This document shows, in pieces, positions 6,292 to 44,041 of a stretch of DNA of 64,000 nt (positions are counted from its first letter, which is position 1; each line of letters opens with the position of its first letter). Source of the DNA: a virus; IMG/VR virus record IMGVR_UViG_3300028025_000092, one strand, 5' to 3'. A program made the translations under genes and the position numbers. Under the pieces are notes generated by a model that saw nothing but the letters and a program-made list of their open reading frames with translations, was not told the origin of the DNA and ran no database searches.

Positions 6292-7983
6292 ATGGCAGCA
6301 ATAACATCAACTATAACATTTGATTTCACTAAAACTAATCCAGTAAAAAGATGGCAGTTTAATCCAAACGGAGCAGATGGTTATATTTTTAGTGACAATC
6401 AAATAACAGGACCCACTGCCCAAACCGTTGTTGATGGAAGTCTTTTCAAGGTATCAAGATCTAGCGATGAATACGACGGATTGACAGAGGGGGATGGTGC
6501 TTATATATACACAGTTGCATCCATCAACGAGTTACTTAACATAAACTCTCAGAATACATTTGTTAAGAGCATCTGTATAATTCCAAAATTTGCTACCAGA
6601 AACAATTATGGCGGTATGATTGTGGACAATACGCAACAGATATTTGATACATTTTTTGAAGGAAGATGGATTAATTCAGGAACAGGATTTTCGGAAATGT
6701 ACAGAGGAAGAATTAGATTTATAAACTGGTCTAATGATTATGTCCTAACCGGACCTCCCGATGAAGCTGATCCTAACAATCTTTTAGGAGGCACATATAA
6801 TACTTTTACTTTTAATGTTGGCTATAATTATTATTTTGCCACAGCCGGTCCGGCAGCATTTGCAGATCTTGGCTCTCAGGCAGGAAATGCAGTGGGTGGG
6901 GGATATGATAATTATTACGCTGCAGGAGCATTATGGGCCAATTATAGTGCTTTCAACAGCTATACAGTTCCTAATGCTTTTTATAGCTCCCGTGGCGGCA
7001 CTAATGGACAATTTAAATATTTAAATTTCACACCCGGTGTATCAGGTGCAGGATCGTCCAGACCATATGGGGATTTTTGGGATAAATCACTTATGACCTT
7101 TGAGACCGTTAGGTTTGAAATTCCGTTTGCAATAACTATCCCACAATTTCAGCACGTGTATGAGGGTTGGCCTTGGAATAAGTCAAGAAAAACTCTTACC
7201 ACGGATTTCATATTTACTAGTATCGATATTGTCGTTACATACGATACTGTAAGTGAATATAAATTAAAATTCTTTTCAGATCTAGATATCACGGCAGGTA
7301 ATAATTTTTCTTCCTCTACTGTTTATTTAGATAAAAACAAAACAAGAACAGTTCCCCAAGGATATTTAGCCACTGGGGGTAAACATTTTATAGTAAATGC
7401 CTCAGGTTTATTAACAGCGAAAAGAACATGTCAAGCTACGATCACTTTAACAGCATCCGTTAATGGGACAGTTTCATCAAGCTATCCTTCAGCAGCTAGT
7501 GGATATGGGAGTTATAGTTTTAACGAAGATGTTTCTTATATAACATTAGATGCCTCTCCAAACTATCCCATAATTTTCGATAGATGGGAGGCAATAGATT
7601 TTGACGGAAACACATCAACAATCAGTTACGATTCAACTATCAACGTTTATAACGGGCTTTATGCAAGTATACAACCAATATTCTCGGAATCAGCTCCGCC
7701 ACCGCCAACACCTCAATCCTATGAATATGCAATTGGACCAGCAGGTTCAAGTTCGGGCGAAGCATGTAGTTATTTTTCTTCATATTTACCAGAAGTTGTA
7801 TATGCTTCAGAGAGTCAGAGTTCGATAGTTACGAGATTCTTTACAGATTCTGGATTAACAACAGGATATGGTGGTTCGGGATTACATGCATGGAGAAGAG
7901 ATGTTGATTCAAATTCGCAACTTATCTATGGTGAGGTATCAGCTAGCGGATACACGAGCGGCATGGGATCATGTGTAATTTAA
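6292..7983 (+). CDS. Hypothetical virion-associated protein
   Basis: 563-aa Ser/Thr/Tyr/Gly-rich ORF in the fibre block. Confidence 0.6.
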   Translation: MAAITSTITFDFTKTNPVKRWQFNPNGADGYIFSDNQITGPTAQTVVDGSLFKVSRSSDEYDGLTEGDGAYIYTVASINELLNINSQNTFVKSICIIPKFATRNNYGGMIVDNTQQIFDTFFEGRWINSGTGFSEMYRGRIRFINWSNDYVLTGPPDEADPNNLLGGTYNTFTFNVGYNYYFATAGPAAFADLGSQAGNAVGGGYDNYYAAGALWANYSAFNSYTVPNAFYSSRGGTNGQFKYLNFTPGVSGAGSSRPYGDFWDKSLMTFETVRFEIPFAITIPQFQHVYEGWPWNKSRKTLTTDFIFTSIDIVVTYDTVSEYKLKFFSDLDITAGNNFSSSTVYLDKNKTRTVPQGYLATGGKHFIVNASGLLTAKRTCQATITLTASVNGTVSSSYPSAASGYGSYSFNEDVSYITLDASPNYPIIFDRWEAIDFDGNTSTISYDSTINVYNGLYASIQPIFSESAPPPPTPQSYEYAIGPAGSSSGEACSYFSSYLPEVVYASESQSSIVTRFFTDSGLTTGYGGSGLHAWRRDVDSNSQLIYGEVSASGYTSGMGSCVI

Positions 7984-7998
7984 AAATGCATTTTTATT

Positions 7999-8048
7999 GT
8001 AACTTTTTCTTATATTTGGATATAATTTAAATAGTTAAACGATATATA
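7999..8048 (+). promoter_or_regulatory. Stacked promoters for tRNA operon 1 leader (GTAAC-N17-TATAAT, host-type TATATTTG, GATATATA)
   Basis: GTAAC 7999-8003 / TATAAT 8021-8026; TATATTTG 8011-8018; GATATATA 8041-8048; all three motifs recur upstream of other genes. Confidence 0.6.
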
Positions 8049-8055
8049 AATCAAA

Positions 8056-8148
8056 ATGAACAAGAGCTTTAATATATTACCGCTTCATAGCACGTTATTA
8101 TCTTCATCAAGAAGACCGATAACTCCTGCGAAGATCCTAGGTAATTAA
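8056..8148 (+). CDS. Leader peptide of tRNA operon 1 (MNKSFNILPLHSTLLSSSRRPITPAKILGN)
   Basis: 30-codon ORF after an A-rich leader; codons 7-24 all encode amino acids of cluster-1 tRNAs; its 3' end is the antiterminator strand. Confidence 0.8.
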   Translation: MNKSFNILPLHSTLLSSSRRPITPAKILGN

Positions 8149-8173
8149 GAGAAACTTAAATTCATTTTCATCT

Positions 8174-8211
8174 AAAAAGCCTAGATCCTTAAAAAAGATT
8201 TAGGCTTTTTT
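8174..8211 (+). terminator. Attenuator terminator of tRNA operon 1
   Basis: GCCTAGATC/GATTTAGGC 9-bp stem then T6; its 5' strand can instead pair with AAGATCCTAGGT (8131-8142). Confidence 0.8.
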
Positions 8212-8216
8212 GTTGG

Positions 8217-8228
8217 GTTCTTTGACAT
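8217..8228 (+). promoter_or_regulatory. boxA-like antitermination element
   Basis: GTTCTTTGACAT resembles rrn boxA (GCTCTTTAACA); lies between the attenuator and the first tRNA. Confidence 0.55.
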
Positions 8229-8244
8229 GGTGTTAAATTAAAAA

Positions 8245-8329
8245 GGAGAGTTGGCAGAGCGGTCGATTGCGGCAGTCTTGAAAACTGTTGACTGTAAAAG
8301 GTCCCGGGGTTCGAATCCCTGACTCTCCG
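8245..8329 (+). tRNA. tRNA-Ser(TGA)
   Basis: GGAGAGT/ACTCTCC acceptor, GCAGT-CTTGAAA-ACTGT, long variable arm, TTCGAAT. Confidence 0.95.
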
Positions 8330-8334
8330 CAACT

Positions 8335-8407
8335 GCCTCCTTAGCTCAGCTGGTAGAGCGACGCACTTGTAATGCGTAGGTCATTGGTTCGATCCCGATA
8401 GGAGGCT
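8335..8407 (+). tRNA. tRNA-Thr(TGT)
   Basis: GCCTCCT/AGGAGGC, ACGCA-CTTGTAA-TGCGT. Confidence 0.95.
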
Positions 8408-8474
8408 CAACGCTAACGTAAAATACGTACGCTAACATAATATCTGTTAGAATACAAAAGTTCGGTAGCAAGCT

Positions 8475-8572
8475 TATTAGACCCCGCAGAGGCTGGCGCC
8501 ACCAGTATGGACGTAACGTTCATGCCATACTGAAAGCACGCGGAAACGCTGAAATGGTGGTCGGGTCTAATA
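8475..8572 (+). ncRNA. Candidate structured ncRNA (multi-way junction)
   Basis: TATTAGACCC/GGGTCTAATA closing stem; CCACCA/TGGTGG; GTATGG/CCATAC; GCG-GAAA-CGC GNRA hairpin. Confidence 0.6.
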
Positions 8573-8575
8573 CTT

Positions 8576-8665
8576 AGAGAGGTGTCCGAGAGGCTGATGG
8601 AGCACGCTTGGAAAGCGTGTTTACGAGTGATCGTAACAAGGGTTCGAATCCCTTTCTCTCTGCCA
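8576..8665 (+). tRNA. tRNA-Ser(GGA), CCA encoded
   Basis: AGAGAGG/TCTCTCT, CACGC-TTGGAAA-GCGTG, variable arm, GCCA end. Confidence 0.95.
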
Positions 8666-8675
8666 AAAGATATAT

Positions 8676-8796
8676 GCCGGTGTGGCGGAATGAATGATCT
8701 CGAATTCGAATAGAGATTATTAGACGTCCCGTAATTCTAGAAAAGGTGGTGAATCCGAAATGGACACCGTGGAGGTAGCCAGACCTCCCACCGGCA
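8676..8796 (+). ncRNA. tRNA-Leu-like RNA with D-loop hairpin insertion, unpaired anticodon region and non-canonical T-loop
   Basis: GCCGGTG/CACCGGC-A acceptor; TGGCGGAATG...AGACG Leu-type D arm; GGAGG-TAGCCAGA-CCTCC T arm. Confidence 0.7.
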
Positions 8797-8803
8797 CCTT
8801 TTT

Positions 8804-8889
8804 GCCTGGGTGTTGAAATAGGTAGACAAGACAGACTTAAAATCTGTTGGACTGTAAAGTCCGTGCGGGTTCGATTCCCGCCCCAGGTA
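8804..8889 (+). tRNA. tRNA-Leu(TAA)
   Basis: GCCTGGG/CCCAGGT-A, ACAGA-CTTAAAA-TCTGT, variable arm. Confidence 0.95.
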
Positions 8890-8892
8890 CAT

Positions 8893-8978
8893 CCTAATGA
8901 TAGCGTCAAGCCGGATTTTGCGACTTCGTTAGGTCAGATCTGTCCAATAGGAGAGCCGGCTGCGACCCTGGACAGATC
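8893..8978 (+). ncRNA. Candidate twin-hairpin ncRNA with repeated AGCCGG..TGCGAC loop motif
   Basis: CCTAATGA/TCGTTAGG and GATCTGTCCA/TGGACAGATC stems, each enclosing AGCCGG-(n)-TGCGAC. Confidence 0.5.
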
Positions 8979-8987
8979 ACTACATTT

Positions 8988-9061
8988 GGTTCTGTAGCTC
9001 AGCTGGATAGAGCGCCACCCTTCTAAGGTGGATGTCGTTGGTTCGAATCCAACCGGGATCA
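8988..9061 (+). tRNA. tRNA-Arg(TCT)
   Basis: CCACC-CTTCTAA-GGTGG, TTCGAAT. Confidence 0.95.
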
Positions 9062-9064
9062 CAA

Positions 9065-9199
9065 TTAAGGTTGATTGGGGAATGGTGATATGAAATACCT
9101 GGTAGAGGTGGGAAGTTAATATCATCGGAGTTTGAACTACCACTAGTAATGCCAGTTGTAAAAGAGATTGTCCACTGAACCATCTTTCTCTTTCCTTAA
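9065..9199 (+). ncRNA. Candidate structured ncRNA with possible pseudoknot
   Basis: TTAAGG/CCTTAA ends; ATGGT/ACCAT; GATAT/ATATC enclosing ACCT-GGTAG-AGGT; loop GGTAG complementary to CTACC (9137-9141). Confidence 0.45.
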
Positions 9200-9204
9200 A
9201 ATAT

Positions 9205-9278
9205 GTTGGATGTAGCTCAGTTGGCAGAGCACTAGCTTGTGGCGCTAGATGTCGCCGGTTCGATCCCGGTCGTTCAAC
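9205..9278 (+). tRNA. tRNA-His(GTG) with encoded G-1
   Basis: CTAGC-TTGTGGC-GCTAG; G-1:C73 identity pair. Confidence 0.95.
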
Positions 9279-9285
9279 CATTACT

Positions 9286-9362
9286 CGGGTAGTTCGGGAG
9301 TCAGGTCACCCGGCTTGGTTTGGGACCAAGACAACTCGCAAGTTCGAATCTTGCCTACCCGA
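9286..9362 (+). tRNA. tRNA-Pro(TGG)
   Basis: CGGGTAG/CTACCCG-A, CTTGG-TTTGGGA-CCAAG. Confidence 0.93.
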
Positions 9363-9364
9363 CA

Positions 9365-9432
9365 GAAAGATCAAAGAGACCGCTAAATCGAGTTAGTGAA
9401 AATCTACATTCTCTTTGGTCTTTTCGTTTTTT
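9365..9432 (+). terminator. Long hairpin with U-rich tail (terminator or processing site)
   Basis: AAAGATCAAAGAG/CTCTTTGGTCTTT stem followed by T runs. Confidence 0.45.
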
Positions 9433-9450
9433 ATTTTCGATGTTTTACTC

Positions 9451-9458
9451 TATATTTG
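9451..9458 (+). promoter_or_regulatory. Bacteroidota-type -7 promoter element TATATTTG
   Basis: Matches TAnnTTTG, 12 nt upstream of tRNA(CAT). Confidence 0.55.
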
Positions 9459-9470
9459 TAACATCAAAAA

Positions 9471-9544
9471 GGACTTGTAGCTCAGTTGGTTAGAGCAAAT
9501 GACTCATAATCATTAGGTCCCTGGTTCGAGCCCAGGCTGGTCCA
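9471..9544 (+). tRNA. tRNA(CAT), probably Ile2 (lysidine, reads ATA)
   Basis: GG-start acceptor, AATGA-CTCATAA-TCATT, A73; lacks initiator features; elongator Met not excluded. Confidence 0.85.
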
Positions 9545-9552
9545 CAAATTTA

Positions 9553-9634
9553 GGCCCTCTGTTGTAATTGGTAGCCAAGCCAGACTTAGGATCTGGTGTC
9601 GCAAGACGTGAGAGTTCGAGTCTCTCGGGGGTCA
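9553..9634 (+). tRNA. tRNA-Leu(TAG)
   Basis: CCAGA-CTTAGGA-TCTGG, variable arm GTC-GCAA-GAC. Confidence 0.93.
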
Positions 9635-9645
9635 CAACTTTTATT

Positions 9646-10680
9646 ATGAACAAACAAAGGGTATGTGCTATAATAGGGTCGTACACTAAAACCCATTTAG
9701 ACACGGCTCTTCTATCTCTAACAATAGAAGGTATAAAAAGAAGAGGCTATAAAACATGCCTCGCAACCCATGCTCCTGTTAGCCACGAGCTTCAAAAATC
9801 TGTAGATTATTTTATTTACACAGATGAGAATCAAATTCTAAATCCAGGGTTTGAGCAAATGGCCGGATATTATTATAATGGTTCGAATTTTTATTTCAGA
9901 AGTAATTATAGTAACACCAGCGGTGCACATTCTTTTGCAATATTAATGAACATCAAAAATTCATTATGGCTAATGGAAAAGAAAGGATTTACCCATTTTA
10001 TTTATTTTGAATCCGATTCTTTTCTGAATCAAAAAGACCACGAAAAATTAGAAGAAGCCTTATCAGATAAAATGCTAGATCTTGATTATTGGTTCATGAA
10101 CGAAACATATAATCTAGGTGATCAGATATTTCCTGTTACCTCAATATTTTCAGGAAGAATAGAATATTTCTCAAAGAACACAGATCAGATATTTAGCCCA
10201 GACGGTTATTTGGATTTCCTATCATCGGGTGGAAATTGCACATTAGAATCATTTTTTCTTAAATTAATAAACACATATCCCGGAAATGGAACCATTGAAA
10301 AAAATAGACCGAGAGATTTTTTTTCTAGTGAATGGATCGGGATTTCTAGCGGAGGTAATATAGCATTACCAGGATATGATAATCTAATTCTTGATCTTGT
10401 TGATGTAGTAAGAGATTATCACAGCAATGATTCATTCTTCCTTGTGTTCCCCTTTATAAACAGCGGAGAAAATGTTGGGGTTAAAGTATATCTAGATGGG
10501 GTATTAAATCACACAAGAGAAGTTATACCTAATGGGATATTTCATTATTTCAAATTTAATTTTGAAAAATCTTCAACGATAAAAGTAGAATTTCATTATT
10601 TAGGTTCTGTGCGTTATGTTATAGAAAAAAGCGTTGATTCTATAAGATCTAATCAACATTCATACTTTAAATTCAAGTAA
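9646..10680 (+). CDS. Putative glycosyltransferase-like protein
   Basis: Real start MNKQRV after the tRNA; VDYFIYTDEN and YFESD (DxD-like) motifs. Confidence 0.45.
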   Translation: MNKQRVCAIIGSYTKTHLDTALLSLTIEGIKRRGYKTCLATHAPVSHELQKSVDYFIYTDENQILNPGFEQMAGYYYNGSNFYFRSNYSNTSGAHSFAILMNIKNSLWLMEKKGFTHFIYFESDSFLNQKDHEKLEEALSDKMLDLDYWFMNETYNLGDQIFPVTSIFSGRIEYFSKNTDQIFSPDGYLDFLSSGGNCTLESFFLKLINTYPGNGTIEKNRPRDFFSSEWIGISSGGNIALPGYDNLILDLVDVVRDYHSNDSFFLVFPFINSGENVGVKVYLDGVLNHTREVIPNGIFHYFKFNFEKSSTIKVEFHYLGSVRYVIEKSVDSIRSNQHSYFKFK

Positions 10681-10744
10681 AGTATATTTGAATTGGGGGA
10701 ACTTATTTAATTTTTTTGATATAAATTTAGAATAATACCCACCA

Positions 10745-11056
10745 ATGAATAGAGGCAAATTTAAAAAAATAATCAAGGAATATAAAGATGCCTCAAAGTA
10801 TGAGGTATACGAGGGAGTTAGAGATAATTTTATTTTTGGATTTCTTGGTGCAACCCTAGTGGTCTTTATTTCAACAAGAATGGATTTAGCAGTTCTTTCT
10901 GGATATCTTGCTTATTATTTTTTCATGGGTAAAATAGTCAACAGGCCCAAGTATGTTACTTCTCTTGGTAAAATGATAGTGTTTCCTATTCCCTCTGCAC
11001 TTGGGGCTTTTGCTGGCTATAAATTAGCTTATTATCTGCACATTTGGATCTCTTAA
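10745..11056 (+). CDS. Small membrane protein
   Basis: Three hydrophobic segments; GGAAC-N17-TATAAA upstream. Confidence 0.7.
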   Translation: MNRGKFKKIIKEYKDASKYEVYEGVRDNFIFGFLGATLVVFISTRMDLAVLSGYLAYYFFMGKIVNRPKYVTSLGKMIVFPIPSALGAFAGYKLAYYLHIWIS

Positions 11057-11057
11057 A

Positions 11058-12029
11058 TTACCTTTGTTTAAATACGATTGAGGTATCTGGTGCAAATAAT
11101 ACCTTTCCGAATGGAGGTTTGTTATGTACCGTAGGACCACAGATAAACCAGAAAGTTTTGTTTGCGTATTTTGGTATTCCGTACTTCTTTGGATCTGGAT
11201 ATTGAGCCAGTGTGTCTGTTAAATAAATAAAGATTGAAGGATTAATTTTAGTCTTTAGAACATTTTTTTTATGAGCGCCATCAACAAATTCAAACGGAGG
11301 AATAAATCCTTTAGCATTACCCCCGGTGGATGCCCATTTTGAAAGATCCGGCATTTTACCCTTTTTAACTATATCAACATTATCGATATCATCGCTACAA
11401 TAAATGATGTAAGTTGTATCAGCATCGAATTGTTTGCAAAGATAAATTACTTCCTTTATGAAAGTATTGGACACTGTTTGAGAAATAGAACCTGACGTGT
11501 CTATAGCAGCTACGATTGTTCTAAGAGTATCCTTTCCAATAGGCTTTTGTCCGTATAGATATTTCCCACCAGCAACAAATCTTCTGTTTGGAAGAACAGT
11601 ATCTTTAGAACTAAATGAATTATCAAAGAATTTTTTTAATTCTTTTTTCCAATTAACTAAAGGCTCTGATGAAGATAATTTTTTTACCATATCTTTAAAT
11701 CTGCTACTATCAGATTTTGCCATCGCCTTTGCTGCTATGTTTTTCCAATCCGGTGTTGCTTTTTTGCCCTTGTAAATTGAAGACTTACCCTTCTTGGTGT
11801 ATTCAGTTGCTTTATTCTTTATGGATTTAGTTTTGTCGGTTACACTTCTTTGTGTGCTAATACCAGGTTTTTCCTGTCCGACCATAGGGATATCTTCCTT
11901 CCCAGTTGAATCCTCTGTAAATTTTGGTTTCCCTCCGCCACCTGGGGTATTACTATCTCCTTTACCTCGTGGGTTTTGAGTTATGGAATTTGGATCTATT
12001 AATGTATATTGTCCTAATTTTACTAGCAT
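11058..12029 (-). CDS. VWA-like (DUF2201 C-terminal) protein
   Basis: VNWKKELK...PNRR...IVAAIDTSGSIS MIDAS, TGG, IYLTD. Confidence 0.8.
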   Translation of the reverse strand: MLVKLGQYTLIDPNSITQNPRGKGDSNTPGGGGKPKFTEDSTGKEDIPMVGQEKPGISTQRSVTDKTKSIKNKATEYTKKGKSSIYKGKKATPDWKNIAAKAMAKSDSSRFKDMVKKLSSSEPLVNWKKELKKFFDNSFSSKDTVLPNRRFVAGGKYLYGQKPIGKDTLRTIVAAIDTSGSISQTVSNTFIKEVIYLCKQFDADTTYIIYCSDDIDNVDIVKKGKMPDLSKWASTGGNAKGFIPPFEFVDGAHKKNVLKTKINPSIFIYLTDTLAQYPDPKKYGIPKYANKTFWFICGPTVHNKPPFGKVLFAPDTSIVFKQR

Positions 12030-12045
12030 TTTCTGTGTTTTAGTA

Positions 12046-12414
12046 TTAAACTTCTATGTCACCATTAGGAAGTACTCTTTTGATTGTGGTTTCTGTCCCG
12101 TCAGATAGTATTACTCTATCACCAACGTTTGGTAATGAAGGTGGCGGGGTTTTATCCCCATCCTCGTCTCCTGGTTTTTCTCCCGGTAAACCTGGTATTG
12201 GTTTTTTTTCACCTAAGCCTGGTAATGGCTTTTCCCCAGGACCCTCGGTTACACCTGTAATAGTTTCTCCCCCACCTCCTCCTCCGTCTCCTTTGCCTTC
12301 CTGAGGATCTACTATAACATCAAATTCGTTTCTTTTTAAAGACATTTGACCCATAGTGCTTTCGTTTACTTCTTTTGATTTTGAAAATTCACCGAATGAA
12401 AATATTTTATTCAT
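12046..12414 (-). CDS. Small protein with N-terminal F-x-E-F..NE motif and C-terminal KOW/SH3-like module
   Basis: MNKIFSFGEF..VNES; NVGDRVILSDG..IKRV..NGDIEV. Confidence 0.65.
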   Translation of the reverse strand: MNKIFSFGEFSKSKEVNESTMGQMSLKRNEFDVIVDPQEGKGDGGGGGGETITGVTEGPGEKPLPGLGEKKPIPGLPGEKPGDEDGDKTPPPSLPNVGDRVILSDGTETTIKRVLPNGDIEV

Positions 12415-12425
12415 GTTTATAATTA

Positions 12426-13394
12426 TTATATCTCGTTAACATCTGCTAAATCAGAAAGATTAGATCTACCAGAGGATGCTGCTCTTTCCATCTTTACTTC
12501 TTCCTCTGTCATTTCATCTATATCATGGGTTCCGTCAGAATTGATGGATGTTATCTTTCCATATCTTCCGTCCTTACTTTTAATAAGATCTCCAACTTTA
12601 GCTTGATGAACTTTAGACCCACCGCCTGCTTCACCACCTCCTGCTTCATCATCTTCTTCACCATCTCCTGCTTCACCATTATCGTCTTCTTCAGATCCAC
12701 CCGGGGTATCATCATATTCATCCTCTCCGGTTTCTTCAAACTCGTCTTCCCCCTCTTCTATTTGTATTTCTAAACCTTCACTAGGTCCAGGAAGGGGAGT
12801 TCCTTCGTCTACGACATTTCCTAGATCCTGATTCTCTTGTTTTGGCAGTGGATTATCTTTGATTATTTCATAAATATCTTCTGCTCTCATTCCAGAATAC
12901 TTTTCCTCTAAAAGACCCATTCTAGATCCATCCGCATTTTTTGGCCATGCAGTTTCGTCTTTAGCTTGTCCAAAATCCTCCCCATCCAAAATAGGATTGA
13001 TGGCATAATCACAAGCATAGTTCCATATTAGTGGATTTCTATCTTGCCTTCTTTTCATATGATCTCCAATACAATGTAGTAATTCGTGTGCCAAAACTAG
13101 TCTTATAGCTGCATCAGTTTGGGATGCCACGAATTCCGGATGAAATATAATTCTTTTACCATCAGTGCACATTGTTTTGGGTCTAATTGCATCAGATCCA
13201 TATATGTCAATGTTTGATAATAGATCCGCATAATCTGCTTTTCGAAGATTCATCCAGATTATTGATCTGTTTATTCTTTTGGTGATTTCGACAGGATCAT
13301 AACCAAGATTGCTTTCGGAATAATCTGCATCTTCATTTTCGTTTATTGATTTAATAAACGACTTAAAAGATCCGTATTTTATGAATTTACTCAT
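12426..13394 (-). CDS. DUF2201-N putative metallopeptidase
   Basis: TMCTDG..I.F.PEF, LAHELLH (HExxH), WNYACDYAIN. Confidence 0.8.
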   Translation of the reverse strand: MSKFIKYGSFKSFIKSINENEDADYSESNLGYDPVEITKRINRSIIWMNLRKADYADLLSNIDIYGSDAIRPKTMCTDGKRIIFHPEFVASQTDAAIRLVLAHELLHCIGDHMKRRQDRNPLIWNYACDYAINPILDGEDFGQAKDETAWPKNADGSRMGLLEEKYSGMRAEDIYEIIKDNPLPKQENQDLGNVVDEGTPLPGPSEGLEIQIEEGEDEFEETGEDEYDDTPGGSEEDDNGEAGDGEEDDEAGGGEAGGGSKVHQAKVGDLIKSKDGRYGKITSINSDGTHDIDEMTEEEVKMERAASSGRSNLSDLADVNEI

Positions 13395-13400
13395 TATCGT

Positions 13401-14969
13401 TTATCTAATTTTAGCCTGCGCAGATGCTGTAACCATTTTTCCCATTTTATCTGCTAAATCATGATCCGGACTGGCACCATCTGTTACAGCAGCCAGTGAT
13501 TCTGGGAATTTATTGTGTATTGATTTCAATAACCAGCTTGATATTTCTGCCTGTCCGTATTGTACAAAATACTCCACGATATTATAAAGAGTTTGAATAT
13601 CATACGTTTTAACTTTCTTAATAACCATTTCGCCGACGCCTCTTAGAATACTCTTGTTTTTTTCTACCCCTGGTATTTTAATCGCTGCTGCTGGATTATT
13701 CATTATAGTCTCAATGTCTCTTTCTGAGATATTTCTTAAAACATCTAGATATGCATTAAAAGCTCCTGCTGCCTCTGGACCTACCTCACTTCTAAAAATA
13801 TTTAGAATTTCCTTACTTGGTACGTCTCTCCAGCTTTTACCCCCTACGAATTTAATCTCGTCTAATAAAATTAAAGCCCCATCTGTCCATGATCTTGGCG
13901 TTGGGAATGTTTTAGACTCCTCCGTTGGATCTAATCTATGGAAAAATTGTTTATTATCGCCTAAAAAGGATACCAGTTCTGGTAAGATTTTTCCTGCCAT
14001 TTTTCCTTCGGTTGAAGATGCCCACTCACCCCATTCTTCCACGGTAGGAACATAATTAACTATAGTGAATCTGTTCGCCAATGCAAAATCAAATTCTGTA
14101 ACATTCGGTGCTTCTGCCTCTCTGTTACCTGCTGCTATAATAACCCATTTTTCCGGAAGTTGATAATCGGGAAGTCTACCCATTTGAACGAATTGCATCA
14201 ATTTATTTAACACGTTTTTATCTGCTCTATTCATTTCATCAAGGAAAATAAATCCTCCCTTTCCTTCCTTTCCATTATCTGTTGGTAGATTTGCGGGTGC
14301 ATTAAATCTAGTAAATCCCTTTCCTTGAGAAGTCATTACCCTTTTCTTTATTACATTTCCCTCAGAATCTTCTGTCTCTATATCCTGGAATGTTGGTTCT
14401 TCTATATTGTGCTGACTTGGTACCCCAGAAAAATCTTCAGGATTCATAAACTGAACATCAAGATTTTTAAAGTCCATTAGCGGAATGCCTAATTCAGTCG
14501 CTACTTCACCAACTATTTGGGTCTTACCAATTCCAGGTGCTCCATAAACGAAAATTGGTTTTGCTCTACCTCCTGATATTTTCGAGGTATAAAGTCTTCT
14601 AATCATATTTTTAAATTCCGCAGTATTTATATCTCTTACACCTTCTCGCGGATTCGGATATTCAAGTCCTACAACATCAGCTACACCTTCCATCATTCCA
14701 CCAGATCCGTGAACTTCTTCTATCTGTTTATCAATTGGACCATTTTCTGGTAAATATAACATAACTGAAGGTTTACCTGCATAAGGTTGCCCTGCTGGGA
14801 TTTTTGGAATATCACCGTTTGTTAGCTTGTCATAGAATGACTTTGCCCATCCGGTTAGTTTGTCGATAACGTTATCCTTAATCCAAGAAAATACACCTTC
14901 GTTAACAGTGTTTCTGTTTACCTGTTGTCTATCTTTGATAAAGGTCTCAAAATTGGAAACTCTTCTCAT
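13401..14969 (-). CDS. MoxR-like AAA+ ATPase
   Basis: Walker A GAPGIGKT, Walker B IFLDE, AAGNR, ALANRF, TPRSW. Confidence 0.9.
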   Translation of the reverse strand: MRRVSNFETFIKDRQQVNRNTVNEGVFSWIKDNVIDKLTGWAKSFYDKLTNGDIPKIPAGQPYAGKPSVMLYLPENGPIDKQIEEVHGSGGMMEGVADVVGLEYPNPREGVRDINTAEFKNMIRRLYTSKISGGRAKPIFVYGAPGIGKTQIVGEVATELGIPLMDFKNLDVQFMNPEDFSGVPSQHNIEEPTFQDIETEDSEGNVIKKRVMTSQGKGFTRFNAPANLPTDNGKEGKGGFIFLDEMNRADKNVLNKLMQFVQMGRLPDYQLPEKWVIIAAGNREAEAPNVTEFDFALANRFTIVNYVPTVEEWGEWASSTEGKMAGKILPELVSFLGDNKQFFHRLDPTEESKTFPTPRSWTDGALILLDEIKFVGGKSWRDVPSKEILNIFRSEVGPEAAGAFNAYLDVLRNISERDIETIMNNPAAAIKIPGVEKNKSILRGVGEMVIKKVKTYDIQTLYNIVEYFVQYGQAEISSWLLKSIHNKFPESLAAVTDGASPDHDLADKMGKMVTASAQAKIR

Positions 14970-15099
14970 TTTTTATCTTTTTTGATTTATATATCTAAGT
15001 AAATTCGACCTATCTTTATAAAAGATGAGAAAATCTAAAAATCCATAAAAATTCAGGAAGACCCAATGTCTTAACCTGCTAATTAATTATAATGATTAT

Positions 15100-15127
15100 G
15101 AAACAAACCTCAAAAAAGATATATAAC
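15100..15127 (+). promoter_or_regulatory. Promoter for tRNA operon 2 leader
   Basis: GAAAC 15100-15104, 17-nt spacer, TATAAC; overlaps GATATATA 15118-15125. Confidence 0.6.
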
Positions 15128-15143
15128 ATTCAATCAATCAAAA

Positions 15144-15230
15144 ATGGTAAATCAGAGCACATATAATAATTGCTATCAAATGTCTGAACAAGGCAATGAG
15201 ATGGATTATATGCGCACGGATCTGGTTTAA
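15144..15230 (+). CDS. Leader peptide of tRNA operon 2 (MVNQSTYNNCYQMSEQGNEMDYMRTDLV)
   Basis: 28-codon ORF; 13 of codons 3-22 are N/Q/Y/C/E; last codons plus stop form the antiterminator strand. Confidence 0.8.
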   Translation: MVNQSTYNNCYQMSEQGNEMDYMRTDLV

Positions 15231-15252
15231 CATTTTTTTAAATATATTTTTT

Positions 15253-15284
15253 AAACCCAGATCTTAATAAGGTCTGGGTTTTTT
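15253..15284 (+). terminator. Attenuator terminator of tRNA operon 2
   Basis: AAACCCAGATCTT/AAGGTCTGGGTTT stem plus T tract; alternative 13-bp pairing of GGATCTGGTTTAA (15218-15230) with TTAAACCCAGATCT (15251-15264). Confidence 0.85.
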
Positions 15285-15291
15285 ATTTGAT

Positions 15292-15362
15292 GTCGATTTG
15301 GCCGAGAGGATAGGTAGGGGTCTGCAAAACCTCTCACACAGGTTCGAATCCTGTAGTCGACT
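15292..15362 (+). tRNA. tRNA-Cys(GCA)
   Basis: GTCGATT/AGTCGAC-T, GGGGT-CTGCAAA-ACCTC. Confidence 0.93.
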
Positions 15363-15370
15363 CAGAAATT

Positions 15371-15442
15371 GGGGATGTAGCTCAGTGGTAGAGCGGGTCA
15401 CTGTTAATGACTAGGTCGTAGGTTCGAACCCTTCCATCCCCG
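15371..15442 (+). tRNA. tRNA-Asn(GTT)
   Basis: GGGGATG/CATCCCC-G, GGTCA-CTGTTAA-TGACT. Confidence 0.95.
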
Positions 15443-15448
15443 CAAAAT

Positions 15449-15520
15449 GCTCCTATCGACTAGTGGTTAGGTCACATCCCTTTCACGGATGTAGCACGGG
15501 TTCGAATCCCGTTGGGAGTA
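15449..15520 (+). tRNA. tRNA-Glu(TTC)
   Basis: CATCC-CTTTCAC-GGATG, TTCGAAT. Confidence 0.95.
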
Positions 15521-15528
15521 CAAAAATT

Positions 15529-15610
15529 GGGAGCATCGTCTAGCGGCAATGACAAGTGACTGTAAATCACTCCTCTTTCGAGTTCGCAGGTTCGAGTCCT
15601 GCTGCTCCCA
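15529..15610 (+). tRNA. tRNA-Tyr(GTA)
   Basis: AGTGA-CTGTAAA-TCACT, variable arm. Confidence 0.95.
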
Positions 15611-15617
15611 CTAAAAT

Positions 15618-15688
15618 TGCCCGATGGTGTAACGGTAGCACAACTCCCTTTGACGGAGTTAGTTTAGGTTCGAATCCTAATCGGGCAT
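15618..15688 (+). tRNA. tRNA-Gln(TTG)
   Basis: TGCCCGA/TCGGGCA, ACTCC-CTTTGAC-GGAGT. Confidence 0.95.
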
Positions 15689-15693
15689 CAGAA

Positions 15694-16302
15694 TTACCAA
15701 TAATATTTTTCCCATTCAAAATTTTCGAGGGGGGTGAAATACTTATCATATTCTTTGCGTAACGGATTACTAACTAAATTTGGCCCATGAGGGAGAACGT
15801 GGGAAATACCATATTTAGAAGCAAATTCTTTAGCTTTTGCGATAATCTCTGGCATTTTTTTGATACCTTCTTCATCATTCTTGCTATAAAATTTTGCTTC
15901 CATGCTAAATTCTTTTCCTGAATCCCTCCTAGCTCCTGGTGCAAAAATTCTAATGGGATCATATGCCATCCTTCTGTAAATATACATAGGTCGGTAATAT
16001 ATGATCTCGCACTCAAGATCCTCTAGTTTATTTCCGATATACTCTCGTATATTTTTTTCAGCACACTCCGCTCTTTTAATCTCACTATCATCTAGTGTGT
16101 ACCTGGTTTGGAATGGATAGCAGCTATCAATCAATTTATATTGCTGATTATCACTGAATAGTTCTTTCACCGCATCCTCGTTCTGTATTAGTCCTTTTAT
16201 AATGGTTCTATTATGAAGAACCAACGTAAATGTGAGATCGAAAAAATCAATTACAGATGGTGAATTAACCCCGAAATTTTCATATATTGAAACGTGCTTC
16301 AT
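15694..16302 (-). CDS. Hypothetical protein with MKHVSIYENF N-terminus
   Basis: 202-aa ORF; GATATATA upstream on minus strand (16309-16316). Confidence 0.7.
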   Translation of the reverse strand: MKHVSIYENFGVNSPSVIDFFDLTFTLVLHNRTIIKGLIQNEDAVKELFSDNQQYKLIDSCYPFQTRYTLDDSEIKRAECAEKNIREYIGNKLEDLECEIIYYRPMYIYRRMAYDPIRIFAPGARRDSGKEFSMEAKFYSKNDEEGIKKMPEIIAKAKEFASKYGISHVLPHGPNLVSNPLRKEYDKYFTPLENFEWEKYYW

Positions 16303-16400
16303 GTTTTGTATATATCTGGTAGAATTCTACATGTTTCCCTGCCCATTACCGATGGAAAAAATGAAATATTTTAACTATCATATATAAAATAAAATCCCCA

Positions 16401-17174
16401 ATGTTTAAATATCTTACAAAGGAGGAAGTCCAACAGCTTTCCTTCGATTGGAAATATAAAGGATATTCTATTATAGATCTGATCACGCCAGAAGAAGCCG
16501 ATTTAATATCGGAGAATCTAGATAATTTAAGAAAGAAAAGAAATTCGGTAGATGATAAGTACGGTGAGTATGACCCTTACATGCACCCACACAAAGAATC
16601 CGAGTTAGTGTCTAAGATCCTTGGACATCCTAAAATATTAGAATCCGTGGAGTTTATAATAAATTCGGAGATTCAAGGAATACAAACGTGGGCTTATTTT
16701 AAACCACCCGGGGAACTTGGTAGGGATGCACACCAAGATGCTTTCTATGCTCAAACACAATGGAATAAAACTGCTAATGTTAGTATATCTCTAGATAATA
16801 CCGATGAGTCAAATGGTGGTATTTGGGTTTATGAGGCTTCTCATCTTCTACCAATTTTACCTATAGAGATAGATGAGGAAAGAGCTAAGCTCAATCCAAT
16901 CAGATGGAGGAACGAGAGGGGTAAGGCTTGTGTTATGCCAGAAGGACATAATTTTAGCAAAATAACACCACATGTTAACAAAGGACAAGCAATTTTTTTG
17001 CATTCTCATATAGTTCACGGATCGAATGAGAATAAAAGCAATCGATTCAGAAGATCTATATTGAGTGGATATACTGGAAAGGGATCGCCATTTAGAAGCG
17101 GGGAACACATGAAAAGGGAACCAATCGACGTTTATGAACTAAAATTAAAATATTGGGAGGTAAAAAAACTCTAA
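16401..17174 (+). CDS. PhyH-family Fe(II)/2-oxoglutarate dioxygenase
   Basis: FKPPG..HQD, ISLDN..ESNG, HGS..N.S..R. Confidence 0.85.
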   Translation: MFKYLTKEEVQQLSFDWKYKGYSIIDLITPEEADLISENLDNLRKKRNSVDDKYGEYDPYMHPHKESELVSKILGHPKILESVEFIINSEIQGIQTWAYFKPPGELGRDAHQDAFYAQTQWNKTANVSISLDNTDESNGGIWVYEASHLLPILPIEIDEERAKLNPIRWRNERGKACVMPEGHNFSKITPHVNKGQAIFLHSHIVHGSNENKSNRFRRSILSGYTGKGSPFRSGEHMKREPIDVYELKLKYWEVKKL

Positions 17175-17184
17175 TAGATTTTAC

Positions 17185-18396
17185 ATGAAGCTGATACAAA
17201 CGTTCGTTCCTAATAAGTTTGATCTAAAAAAAGAGAATGATAAAGATATAATCTGGAAGGATTTAATGTATGTTCAAATGCTCAGTGTTCTACTTGCTAA
17301 TAGGGAATATGGGGGTATTTCATTATACACTAATAGAAAAATAAAAAATCAAATATTAGACATAGGTGTTCCCTACACCAATATTGATACCGATATATTA
17401 CAGGACACTACATCCGATTTATTCTGTATACCAAAACTTAGAATATACAAAGAAATAAAGGAGCCATTTGTTCATATAGATACGGATACCCTCGTATACG
17501 ATAGAATAGATTTTTCTAAATATAATGCATCAGTAGTATATTCACATCCTGATCTTAGACCACCAGTTCATAAAAATTGTGACGATAAATTACTTGATAT
17601 CTTTAATAATTATCCATCATTGGGTGATTCTGACTCCTTTTTTAAATCTGCCAAGGTAACATACCTCGATTTATTTAATAAATTAACTAATGAACATTCG
17701 GAATTTAAATTAAATAACATTAGGATAGGGGATATTCCTAATATGAATGTAGTTATCGTTAATGATTATGATAGTTTTAATTTGGCAGCACAAATGTCAC
17801 TAGATCACTATATAAAAAATAAGGATCTAATAGACAATACTAAAAACGGGGAATGTTACATTGAACAGCTTATGATTCATTTAAACCTGATGGAAATAAG
17901 TCAAAAATACAGGGAAGAGGTAGGATTGAAACAAACATTCATTCTTAAAGATTCACCTCTCATGCTTGATGCTAATTTTGGAGCCAACTTAGATAGTATA
18001 GAATTTCCCTTCACTATGATACACAATTCACATAAAGATTCTGAAATAGATGAAACAATTCTTATTAATGGTGTATTATATTCAAAGAAAATGGAATATC
18101 ACGAGCATTACGGTAGAATAACTAGAATTAACACGACGGAGGACATTGTAAAACTCTTCGATTTTAATTTCTATGGTCTTTCTCATCTTTCCTTTTATAA
18201 ATGGTCTGAAATTTTTCAGGCAATAGTAATAGGGTATATTATAAAAAACTTTGGTGAAGAATATGTTAGAAATATTTATGAATATTACAAAACAATCTAT
18301 CCGTCGTTATATAATCTTCCTCCATTATCTAAAGGCGAAATATTATACCAAAAATTGACAGGATTTAAATTTGAAAGGATAAAAGGTTTGATCTGA
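17185..18396 (+). CDS. Putative glycosyltransferase (DUF6734-like)
   Basis: ISLYTN...PKLRIY...EPFVHIDTD (DxD), IEQ motif. Confidence 0.55.
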   Translation: MKLIQTFVPNKFDLKKENDKDIIWKDLMYVQMLSVLLANREYGGISLYTNRKIKNQILDIGVPYTNIDTDILQDTTSDLFCIPKLRIYKEIKEPFVHIDTDTLVYDRIDFSKYNASVVYSHPDLRPPVHKNCDDKLLDIFNNYPSLGDSDSFFKSAKVTYLDLFNKLTNEHSEFKLNNIRIGDIPNMNVVIVNDYDSFNLAAQMSLDHYIKNKDLIDNTKNGECYIEQLMIHLNLMEISQKYREEVGLKQTFILKDSPLMLDANFGANLDSIEFPFTMIHNSHKDSEIDETILINGVLYSKKMEYHEHYGRITRINTTEDIVKLFDFNFYGLSHLSFYKWSEIFQAIVIGYIIKNFGEEYVRNIYEYYKTIYPSLYNLPPLSKGEILYQKLTGFKFERIKGLI

Positions 18397-18404
18397 ATAA
18401 AAAT

Positions 18405-18477
18405 GCGGGAGTAGCTCATTTGGTAGAGCGATAGCCTTCCAAGCTATAGGTGGCCGGTTCGAGCCCGGTCTCCCGCT
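18405..18477 (+). tRNA. tRNA-Gly(TCC)
   Basis: GCGGGAG/CTCCCGC-T, ATAGC-CTTCCAA-GCTAT. Confidence 0.95.
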
Positions 18478-18574
18478 CACACTAAACCAGAATATGCATA
18501 ATAAACTATTCCGGTTTATTTATCAAAAATAGGTTTATTAGGTTACTGTAATATCGAAAATAAAATATAATAAA

Positions 18575-18808
18575 ATGTCACAATCAAGAGTAGTTAAAGC
18601 CTTACTAGCTGGTGCAATTGCTGAAAGAGAGCATGCTCTAATGTCTTTAGAACTTCTAACAGAAAAGTCAGTTGGAATTGGAGATCATACAGCAAACGAT
18701 TTTTTAAAAGATGCAGAGATTGCATTACAGAGGTTAGTAGATGCTGATGATAAGATAGAAGCCATCAATAAGTATTTTTCAGAAGGCAAATTAAGGGAAT
18801 CTGTTTAA
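18575..18808 (+). CDS. Hypothetical helical protein
   Basis: 77 aa, VGIGDH motif, A-rich leader. Confidence 0.7.
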   Translation: MSQSRVVKALLAGAIAEREHALMSLELLTEKSVGIGDHTANDFLKDAEIALQRLVDADDKIEAINKYFSEGKLRESV

Positions 18809-18843
18809 GAATATATAAATTTTATATTTAACACTAATTATAC

Positions 18844-19001
18844 TGGTCGGTGATGAAAAGCGTATGCACGGCAGACATGCCCTCCTGTCTCGAGGGTGCG
18901 GATAACGAGATAGATAAATGGTAATGGGTTGACCACACGCTTGCAAGCATAAGTGCCATTTATTGAATTGCCGCATGGGGGTTCGAATCCTTCCTGACCA
19001 G
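18844..19001 (+). tRNA. Giant (158 nt) tRNA-Asp(GTC)-like RNA with 80-nt variable arm
   Basis: TGGTCGG/CTGACCA-G73; CCCTC-CTGTCTC-GAGGG; GGGGG-TTCGAAT-CCTTC; long paired variable region. Confidence 0.75.
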
Positions 19002-19115
19002 CATTGAACATGGATTCAGCTCCTCCTACCTCTAGTAGTAAAAGTCATATGATGCGCAGTATGATGTTAGATGTTCACCCTCACTTATATTGGGGTTTAA
19101 GAGTAGGATACATTA

Positions 19116-19144
19116 AAAACCCAGATCTAAAAGATCTGGGTTTT
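19116..19144. terminator. Bidirectional intrinsic terminator
   Basis: AAAACCCAGATCT-AAA-AGATCTGGGTTTT between convergent units. Confidence 0.85.
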
Positions 19145-34556: not shown

Positions 34557-34604
34557 TTACGGTCTTATAATAACCGTGATTTTTTTCGCTGATATATAGG
34601 AACA

Positions 34605-44016: not shown

Positions 44017-44041
44017 TCAAAAATATACAAGATAGATATAT

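Follow-up and report, generated by a model that had tools for sequence, protein, structure and literature searches.

Putative leader-peptide attenuators whose codons match the downstream tRNAs precede two tRNA arrays of an uncultured freshwater phage

We analyzed a 64,000-nucleotide (nt) stretch of the IMG/VR virus record IMGVR_UViG_3300028025_000092 (hereafter the window), a phage contig of 36% G+C whose source is an uncultured freshwater phage. The window carries two arrays of transfer RNA (tRNA) genes, each preceded by a short open reading frame (ORF) and a strong hairpin, and on comparative and folding evidence we consider it likely that each array is gated by a ribosome-mediated transcription attenuator of the leader-peptide kind. 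What we computed here is the anatomy of the two cassettes, the match between leader codons and array anticodons, how both are conserved and co-vary, and that alternative helices exist. From these we infer leader translation, the coupling of transcription to translation, the efficiency of termination and the direction of the response.

In the proposed mechanism, transcription would start at a phage promoter just 5′ of an ORF of 28–30 codons, and a ribosome would translate this ORF as RNA polymerase nears a strong intrinsic terminator directly before the tRNAs. A ribosome at the last codons or the stop would cover a strand that is able to pair with the 5′ arm of the terminator, in which case the terminator would form and the array would not be made. 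A ribosome lingering on any of the sensor codons, when the matching tRNA is scarce or uncharged, would leave that strand free; the freed strand could then pair with the emerging 5′ arm, no terminator would form, and polymerase would read into the array. Because the array products decode the sensor codons, the arrangement would amount to negative feedback that supplies tRNAs on demand, with the array presumably made only when those tRNAs are depleted.

Both tRNA arrays follow the same layout

Unless a strand is named, features lie on the plus strand. Array 1 (8245–9635) contains nine tRNAs, on which ARAGORN and Rfam agree, in the order Ser(UGA), Thr(UGU), Ser(GGA), Leu(UAA), Arg(UCU), His(GUG), Pro(UGG), a CAU tRNA and Leu(UAG). 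The best matches of the CAU tRNA are CAU-anticodon genes annotated as tRNA-Ile in RefSeq, and it is probably Ile2; an isoleucine reading also fits the two invariant AUA codons in leader 1. Array 2 (15292–15689), which was likewise identified by ARAGORN and Rfam, consists of Cys(GCA), Asn(GUU), Glu(UUC), Tyr(GUA) and Gln(UUG). At both arrays the order of elements is a GATATATAA box, a short ORF, a strong hairpin followed by a T run, and the tRNAs. A common layout for the two operons had been put forward in a preliminary description of this DNA, and we confirmed its ORFs, terminators and arrays.

In cassette 1 the GATATATAA box (8041–8049) lies 6 nt 5′ of the start codon of leader ORF 1 (8056–8148, 30 codons). 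Codons 7–24 of this ORF (8074–8127) form a sensor stretch of 18 consecutive Ile, Leu, Pro, His, Ser, Thr or Arg codons. Intrinsic terminator 1 (8174–8211) has arms at 8174–8187 and 8197–8210 followed by a T run, and its stem of 14 base pairs (bp) has a predicted energy of −15.3 kcal/mol. In cassette 2, the box (15118–15126) lies 17 nt 5′ of the start codon of leader ORF 2 (15144–15230, 28 codons), which has Asn, Gln, Tyr, Cys and Glu sensor codons mainly at positions 3–12, 15–19 and 22. Intrinsic terminator 2 (15253–15287) is a 13-bp stem (15253–15281) followed by TTTTTT, at −16.7 kcal/mol. A generic terminator scan showed no enrichment in the region, with 7 found and 7.3 expected.

The gap from terminator to first tRNA is 33 nt at array 1 and 10 nt at array 2, and at neither array is there room for a promoter after the terminator. 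The gene 5′ of array 2 lies on the opposite strand, so transcripts of array 2 must start in the gap at 14970–15143 and cross the terminator. Contigs from four freshwater RNA libraries cover array 1 including its spacers, and one RNA-library contig of 152 nt spans 8078–8228, taking in the leader, the terminator and a further 17 nt; these are weak signs that the leader and array 1 region is transcribed. The protein-coding stretch between the arrays had no contig cover in the four RNA runs, which says nothing about its expression.

Scans of IMG/VR and metagenomes identified six lineages with the same synteny, mostly from lake water and including contigs of 219 and 245 kb; new lineages were gained only through the DNA pattern of the switch module. 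Both cassettes are kept in the six lineages, at 76–91% DNA identity, and these relatives are referred to below by contig labels such as L003.

Each leader lists the tRNAs of its own array

We scored each leader codon as matched or unmatched to the anticodons of the downstream array under standard wobble rules, with U34 taken to read every codon of its family box. The null set was made up of all windows of the same length within the phage's 40 long ORFs, which keeps the phage's own codon usage; since these windows overlap, the counts that follow are not exact probabilities. In leader 1, 18 of 29 codons are matched against a background of 0.34, the longest matched run is 12 codons (reached in 0 of 15,820 null windows), and all nine tRNA species are represented, a combination of count and coverage found in 2 of 15,820 null windows. 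In leader 2, 13 of 27 codons are matched (background 0.20), the longest run is 6 codons (0 of 15,900 null windows) and coverage is 5/5, with count and coverage equaled in 8 of 15,900. When the pairings of leader and array were swapped, matches fell to 3/29 and 4/27, fewer than in most null windows.

Full coverage is also seen in the relatives. Across the window and four other lineages, coverage of the tRNA species by their own leader was 9/9, 5/5, 10/10, 6/6, 7/7, 4/4, 10/10, 5/5, 10/10 and 6/6. In L003, L024 and L042, whose arrays additionally contain tRNA-Ser(GCU), the matched run of leader 1 takes in all 18 core codons and 10/10 tRNAs are represented, which no null window equaled; nor did any null window equal leader 2 of L003, with 19 of 26 codons matched and 6/6 tRNAs represented.

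The preliminary description had noted that leader 1 is devoid of Cys, Tyr, Gln and Glu and leader 2 of His, Pro and Ile, and this composition holds. It had also described each leader as enriched in the amino acids of its own array. Coverage of the tRNA species is complete, with two corrections: at codon level the AGC codons of leader 1, and also the Ser, Thr, Arg, Leu, Met and Asp codons of leader 2, are unserved by the respective arrays.

The end of each leader ORF can pair with the terminator

The last codons of each ORF were proposed to be the antiterminator strand, and we found complementarity between the last 30 nt of the ORF and the 5′ arm of the terminator in every one of the 15 cassettes, with energies between −10.8 and −21.0 kcal/mol, where random windows average −5 to −7. 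In leader 1 the predicted 5′ strand of the antiterminator (8130–8142, codons 25–29) pairs with 8179–8190, and in leader 2 it comprises the last codons and the stop (15218–15230) and pairs with 15251–15264. Folding the RNA that precedes the 3′ arm gave an antiterminator at −11.6 kcal/mol for leader 1 and a hairpin at −11.0 kcal/mol for leader 2. The leader-2 duplex reaches −12.5 to −13.5 kcal/mol in the window (P = 0.003–0.006) and −14.9 to −21.0 in relatives. We take these helix energies to resemble those of the trp attenuator.

The two sides of the predicted helix also change together. Leaders with CUAGG face an arm with CCUAG and leaders with CUGGG face an arm with CCCAG. Over 12 antiterminator pairs in alignment A5, 92.6% of cells are paired, a figure that drops to at most 49% once the partner is shifted, and at two pairs both sides have changed. 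The C-terminal residues of the leader vary, with Ile replaced by Asn in L042, and the pairing is kept. Terminator 1 itself shows compensatory double changes at three pairs in the L030/L031 lineage.

We simulated masking by folding the RNA before the 3′ arm while a ribosome footprint of 28 nt was kept single-stranded. For leader 1 the antiterminator formed when the A site was at codons 2–22; for leader 2 it formed at codons 2–12 and 19–21 in the window and at codons 2–21 in L003. In the window, L003 and L030 it disappeared at about codon 23 and stayed absent up to and including the stop, and the simulated boundary between on and off coincides with the end of the sensor stretch. The simulation thus agrees with the earlier proposal that a ribosome at the stop would mask the antiterminator, pairing being lost at the last codons and the stop and predicted to form with the ribosome on sensor codons. 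Ribosome-free leaders fold into a long hairpin, at −23.8 and −29.2 kcal/mol, and the two leaders have unusually stable folds (z = −3.1 and −5.4).

Contrary to the earlier statement that the two leaders share no sequence, cassettes 1 and 2 both carry the box, and their antiterminator/terminator modules are homologous, aligning at z = 4.2 within the window. The module of cassette 1 in L030 aligns with that of cassette 2 in L003 at z = 7.0, and cassette 1 of L030 carries a terminator of the cassette-2 type. Because the cassettes differ in the sensor stretch only, their sequences suggest a duplicated scaffold with a rewritten sensor.

A further copy of the hairpin lies elsewhere in the window. At 19117–19143, at a convergent gene junction, there is a perfect palindromic hairpin whose sequence is that of the leader-2 terminator; by its sequence it looks like a generic phage terminator, possibly bidirectional.

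The leader ORFs are conserved as reading frames

Cassette 1 is 86–91% identical to its counterparts in L003 and L005, compared with 51–54% for the last 300 nt of the adjacent gene, and some tRNA genes are less conserved than the cassette in the same comparisons. Leader 1 has 30 codons in 10 of 10 distinct sequences with zero indels, and the non-coding flanks have indels of 1–2 nt. Its 27 variable sites are distributed 4/7/16 over codon positions 1, 2 and 3 (P = 0.005). Replacements within the leader-1 sensor stretch all stay within the amino-acid set of the array (Ser/Thr, Leu/Ser and Pro/His). Leader 2 has 27–28 codons across five lineages, and the sole indel in the ORF is of 3 nt.

The start contexts of the leaders are also gene-like. 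Shine-Dalgarno sequences are missing from most genes of this phage (present in 3 of 35), whose start regions are rich in A, and both leader ORFs show the same A-rich, Shine-Dalgarno-less context with an upstream box as real phage genes do. With their fixed length, in-frame indel and third-position excess in leader 1, the leaders look translated, in line with what had been supposed.

Leader codons change with the tRNA content of the arrays

The preliminary description had proposed that leaders and arrays should co-vary among homologues, and we found such changes, with exceptions, for the UUA, Cys and Lys codons. At least one UUA codon is present in each of the 7/7 leader-1 variants whose array has tRNA-Leu(UAA), and UUA is absent in 3/3 variants whose array is without it. 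Positions 14–15 of leader 1 change from UUA UUA to UCA UCA exactly in the arrays that have no tRNA-Leu(UAA), those of L004, L005 and L032–L034. A Cys codon in leader 2 and a tRNA-Cys in array 2 occur together in the window clade and the L042 clade only, and L003, L005 and L024 have neither. The L042 clade has a tRNA-Lys in array 2, and its leader carries GAG→AAG in an otherwise invariant Gly-Asn-Glu. Both the Cys and the Lys codons had been predicted for leader 2 of L042 ahead of reading it, and both are present. These changes suggest, at the level of sequence comparison, that the sensor is rewritten as arrays change, and we regard the co-variation as supportive evidence rather than proof.

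In L042 the last tRNAs of array 1, CAU, Leu-UAG and Arg-ACG, are separated by stretches of about 0.8–0.9 kb whose protein-coding ORFs extend as far as the following tRNA (L042:5345–8170). The array is split by inserted DNA, and the leader still lists the CAU, Leu-UAG and Arg-ACG tRNAs.

Evidence against the attenuator model and alternative explanations

Several results weigh against attenuation by a translated leader. Some sensor-like codons have no tRNA to report on: the AGC codons of leader 1 in the window, the three Thr codons retained in L004 and L034, which lack a Thr tRNA, the three Gln codons retained in L005, which lacks Gln and Asp tRNAs, and the three Met and two Asp codons of the window's leader 2, whose tRNAs occur only in relatives' arrays. 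Rfam confirmed the missing tRNAs of L004 (Thr) and L005 (Gln and Asp), which are not ARAGORN misses. For most tRNAs the leader has one to three dispersed codons in place of a long tandem run, and a single stall may therefore be short. Variable sites in leader 2 are distributed 7/10/10, with no third-position excess. The leader-1 duplex in the window, at −10.8 kcal/mol (P ~0.06), is the weakest of a family that reaches −20.5 kcal/mol in relatives; shuffle support for the antiterminator covariation is modest, with 24–33 of 500 shuffles reaching the observed value; and the predicted ribosome-free state varies across homologues from 0.09 to 0.99. Co-varying events are few, perhaps one for each change, and the lineages are related. 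Finally, the RNA-library contigs cannot show transcript ends, and carry-over of DNA is possible.

Some of these points would be at home in a different account, in which the 5′ leader is structured and untranslated and helps to process or stabilize the pre-tRNA, perhaps through a cleavage site for RNase III or RNase E or through a protective 5′ structure, or is read by a phage protein antiterminator. The unusual stability of both folds, the conservation of the entire cassette with its non-coding parts and the missing third-position bias of leader 2 would all be expected, and some of the seemingly synonymous changes of leader 1 are in fact changes of paired hairpin positions (pair 49:112). Such a leader would not have to keep a fixed ORF length with in-frame indels only, next to flanks with indels of 1–2 nt, or show the third-position excess of leader 1. 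It also gives no reason for replacements confined to the array's amino-acid set, and the codon–anticodon inventory and its co-variation go unexplained if the leader is not decoded. We consider this account unlikely. Direct sensing of tRNA by the leader RNA in the manner of a T-box, with no ribosome involved, would fit a cargo and a signal that are both tRNAs and the presence of a terminator/antiterminator pair. We judge it very improbable: there was no T-box match up to E = 1 and no Rfam leader family that reached its threshold, a single specifier cannot cover 5 to 10 different tRNAs, and the reading frame is conserved.

It is also conceivable that each cassette is an independent small unit, made up of a promoter, a gene for a small protein with its own function and a terminator, with the tRNAs supplied by constitutive leakage and the codon match a by-product of composition. 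Conservation of the leader-1 peptide is strong and extends beyond its composition to its sequence, several leader codons are unserved by the array, and the hairpin at 19117–19143, of identical sequence, seems to serve as an ordinary terminator, all of which would suit such units. They would offer no account, however, of the full coverage of tRNA species in each lineage, the depleted matches of swapped pairings, the codons that change alongside the gain and loss of tRNAs, or an ORF 3′ end that always complements the 5′ arm of the terminator. The C-terminal residues, which change (Ile to Asn in L042) with the pairing kept, also speak against it, and we find this explanation rather improbable.

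We favor a leader-peptide attenuator at each array. A broader proposal, which we advance tentatively and think less likely than not, is that the cassettes are codon-inventory attenuators in which a conserved promoter and switch scaffold is combined with a sensor that is rewritten on the gain or loss of tRNAs. By sensing decoding speed, they might turn on replacement tRNAs upon depletion of the host pool, for example by anticodon nucleases or by the codon demand of the phage, and would then provide a regulated counter-defence, not a constitutive supply. Host anticodon nucleases or starvation, the triggers put forward in the preliminary description, would be candidates.

Start signals, neighboring genes and further tRNA loci

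The GATATATAA box occurs 7 times in the window with 1.9 expected, and its 8-mer 15 times with 5.9 expected. The GATATATA(A) box has 15 sites in the window, including 14988–14995 and 16309–16316 on the minus strand and sites at 34591, 39437, 50272 and 59693. Copies lie mostly 5–30 nt 5′ of phage start codons, and a near-identical box precedes the transfer-messenger RNA (tmRNA) gene in L005. The GATATATAA box is invariant among the homologues of alignment A5 and has one change in L042. From its distribution, it is probably a phage promoter element. Upstream of cassette 1 there is in addition a sigma-70-like, promoter-like site (7997–8026; TTGTAA-18 nt-TATAAT) with 10 of 12 consensus matches, which may act as a promoter; it is kept in most relatives, though not in L003. 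At 44035 a copy of the box is directly followed by a terminator-like hairpin.

Tail-fibre-like genes lie upstream of the cassette 1 region. Between the arrays, at 11058–14969 on the minus strand, are three genes for a MoxR-like AAA ATPase, a DUF2201_N putative metallopeptidase and a DUF2201 VWA-like protein. In L003 and L005 the arrays almost adjoin and the MoxR/DUF2201 module sits elsewhere, and with the MoxR-like ATPase as the query we recovered one related contig only. Array 1 has long spacers of 98–168 nt between tRNAs (8409–8575, 8666–8803, 8891–8987, 9063–9205 and 9364–9470), several of which are covered by RNA-library contigs. Some are conserved, the Arg-His spacer being 80% identical to that of L005, but absent in L003 (9 nt). 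Further downstream, an element of about 160 nt (18843–19004) has ends that pair like a tRNA acceptor stem and a T-arm-like GGTTCGAATCC in its 3′ part. ARAGORN, Rfam and folding gave it no name (fold z only −1.1), and judging by its sequence it could be an unusual RNA related in form to tRNA or tmRNA, or the decayed remnant of such an RNA.

Near and distant DNA searches of GenBank phages returned tRNA matches only and no homologue of the cassette. Searching bacterial and archaeal genomes turned up no relative of the leader peptide, a scan of IMG/VR with the leader-2 peptide gave no additional contig, and the CAU tRNA of array 2 in L003, which may be elongator Met, had no match in E. coli genomes. 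Two candidates were rejected: L010 has a chance match to the terminator word and no tRNAs, and Flavobacterium phage immuto has a tRNA-Ser that is 92% identical but no cassette, the 51-amino-acid ORF upstream being ordinary. The crAss-like phage cr7_1 has no cassette 5′ of its CAU tRNA, and the isolated tRNAs of L042 and L044 likewise have no cassette upstream and are preceded by protein genes. In the 245-kb relative, a tmRNA is followed by a CAU-anticodon tRNA with no leader cassette upstream (L005:2583–3088).

Comparison with known attenuation systems

Why and when phages use the tRNAs that they carry is debated, and compensation for codon usage, replacement of a degraded host pool and evasion of tRNA-cleaving defences have been discussed. 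If the attenuator model is correct, the tRNA supply of this phage would be driven by demand and self-limiting, through the speed of decoding at codons served by the cargo. The product would feed back directly on the sensor, an arrangement undescribed for tRNA genes in the literature that we searched. The leader sequence should then name the tRNAs of importance to its array, and the cassette would serve as a small sensor, open to rewriting, of how available specific tRNAs are. In the full-text literature, for which our coverage was incomplete, we found no account of tRNA genes under attenuation control, whether in phages or elsewhere. Among Rfam leader families none reached the gathering score; the sole weak match in the region was to the L20 leader (24.5 bits vs 58.7, E = 0.31).

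T-box riboswitches share with the cassettes transcription attenuation that responds to the state of tRNA. A T-box binds tRNA directly, with neither ribosome nor ORF, whereas the ORF is conserved here; no Rfam match to a T-box was obtained up to E = 1 in the region 7000–19000. In Bacteroidota, the Bacteroid-trp leader motif, an Rfam family, places Trp codons upstream of trp genes, a hint that leader-peptide attenuation is in use in the phylum presumed to contain the host. The attenuator of pheST in E. coli, with its pheM leader, answers the supply of charged tRNA and, as proposed for the cassettes, is a leader-peptide attenuator acting on part of the translation machinery. Its target is a synthetase gene for one amino acid; in the cassettes the tRNAs themselves would be controlled, many at once.

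The closest parallels are the attenuators of amino-acid operons in enterobacteria, among them trpL, hisL, pheL and leuL, and the multivalent leaders of ilvGMEDA, with Ile, Leu and Val codons, and of thr, with Thr and Ile codons. Common to these and to the cassettes are a short ORF rich in regulatory codons, whose translation is predicted here, a terminator before the cargo, the masking, by a ribosome at the stop, of an antiterminator overlapping the 5′ arm, and several amino acids per leader. Unlike these operons, whose cargo is enzymes, the cassettes precede tRNA genes, whose product would act directly on the sensor. They also differ in the number of tRNA species that they take stock of, 5 to 10, most of them with one to three codons, and in being viral elements with Shine-Dalgarno-less starts. 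A gene-like leader ORF, codons matched to the function of the cargo, a terminator before that cargo and a mutually exclusive antiterminator, the features of leader-peptide attenuators, are all predicted here from sequence and modeled folds, and the comparison supports a known attenuation logic put to a new use on tRNA genes.

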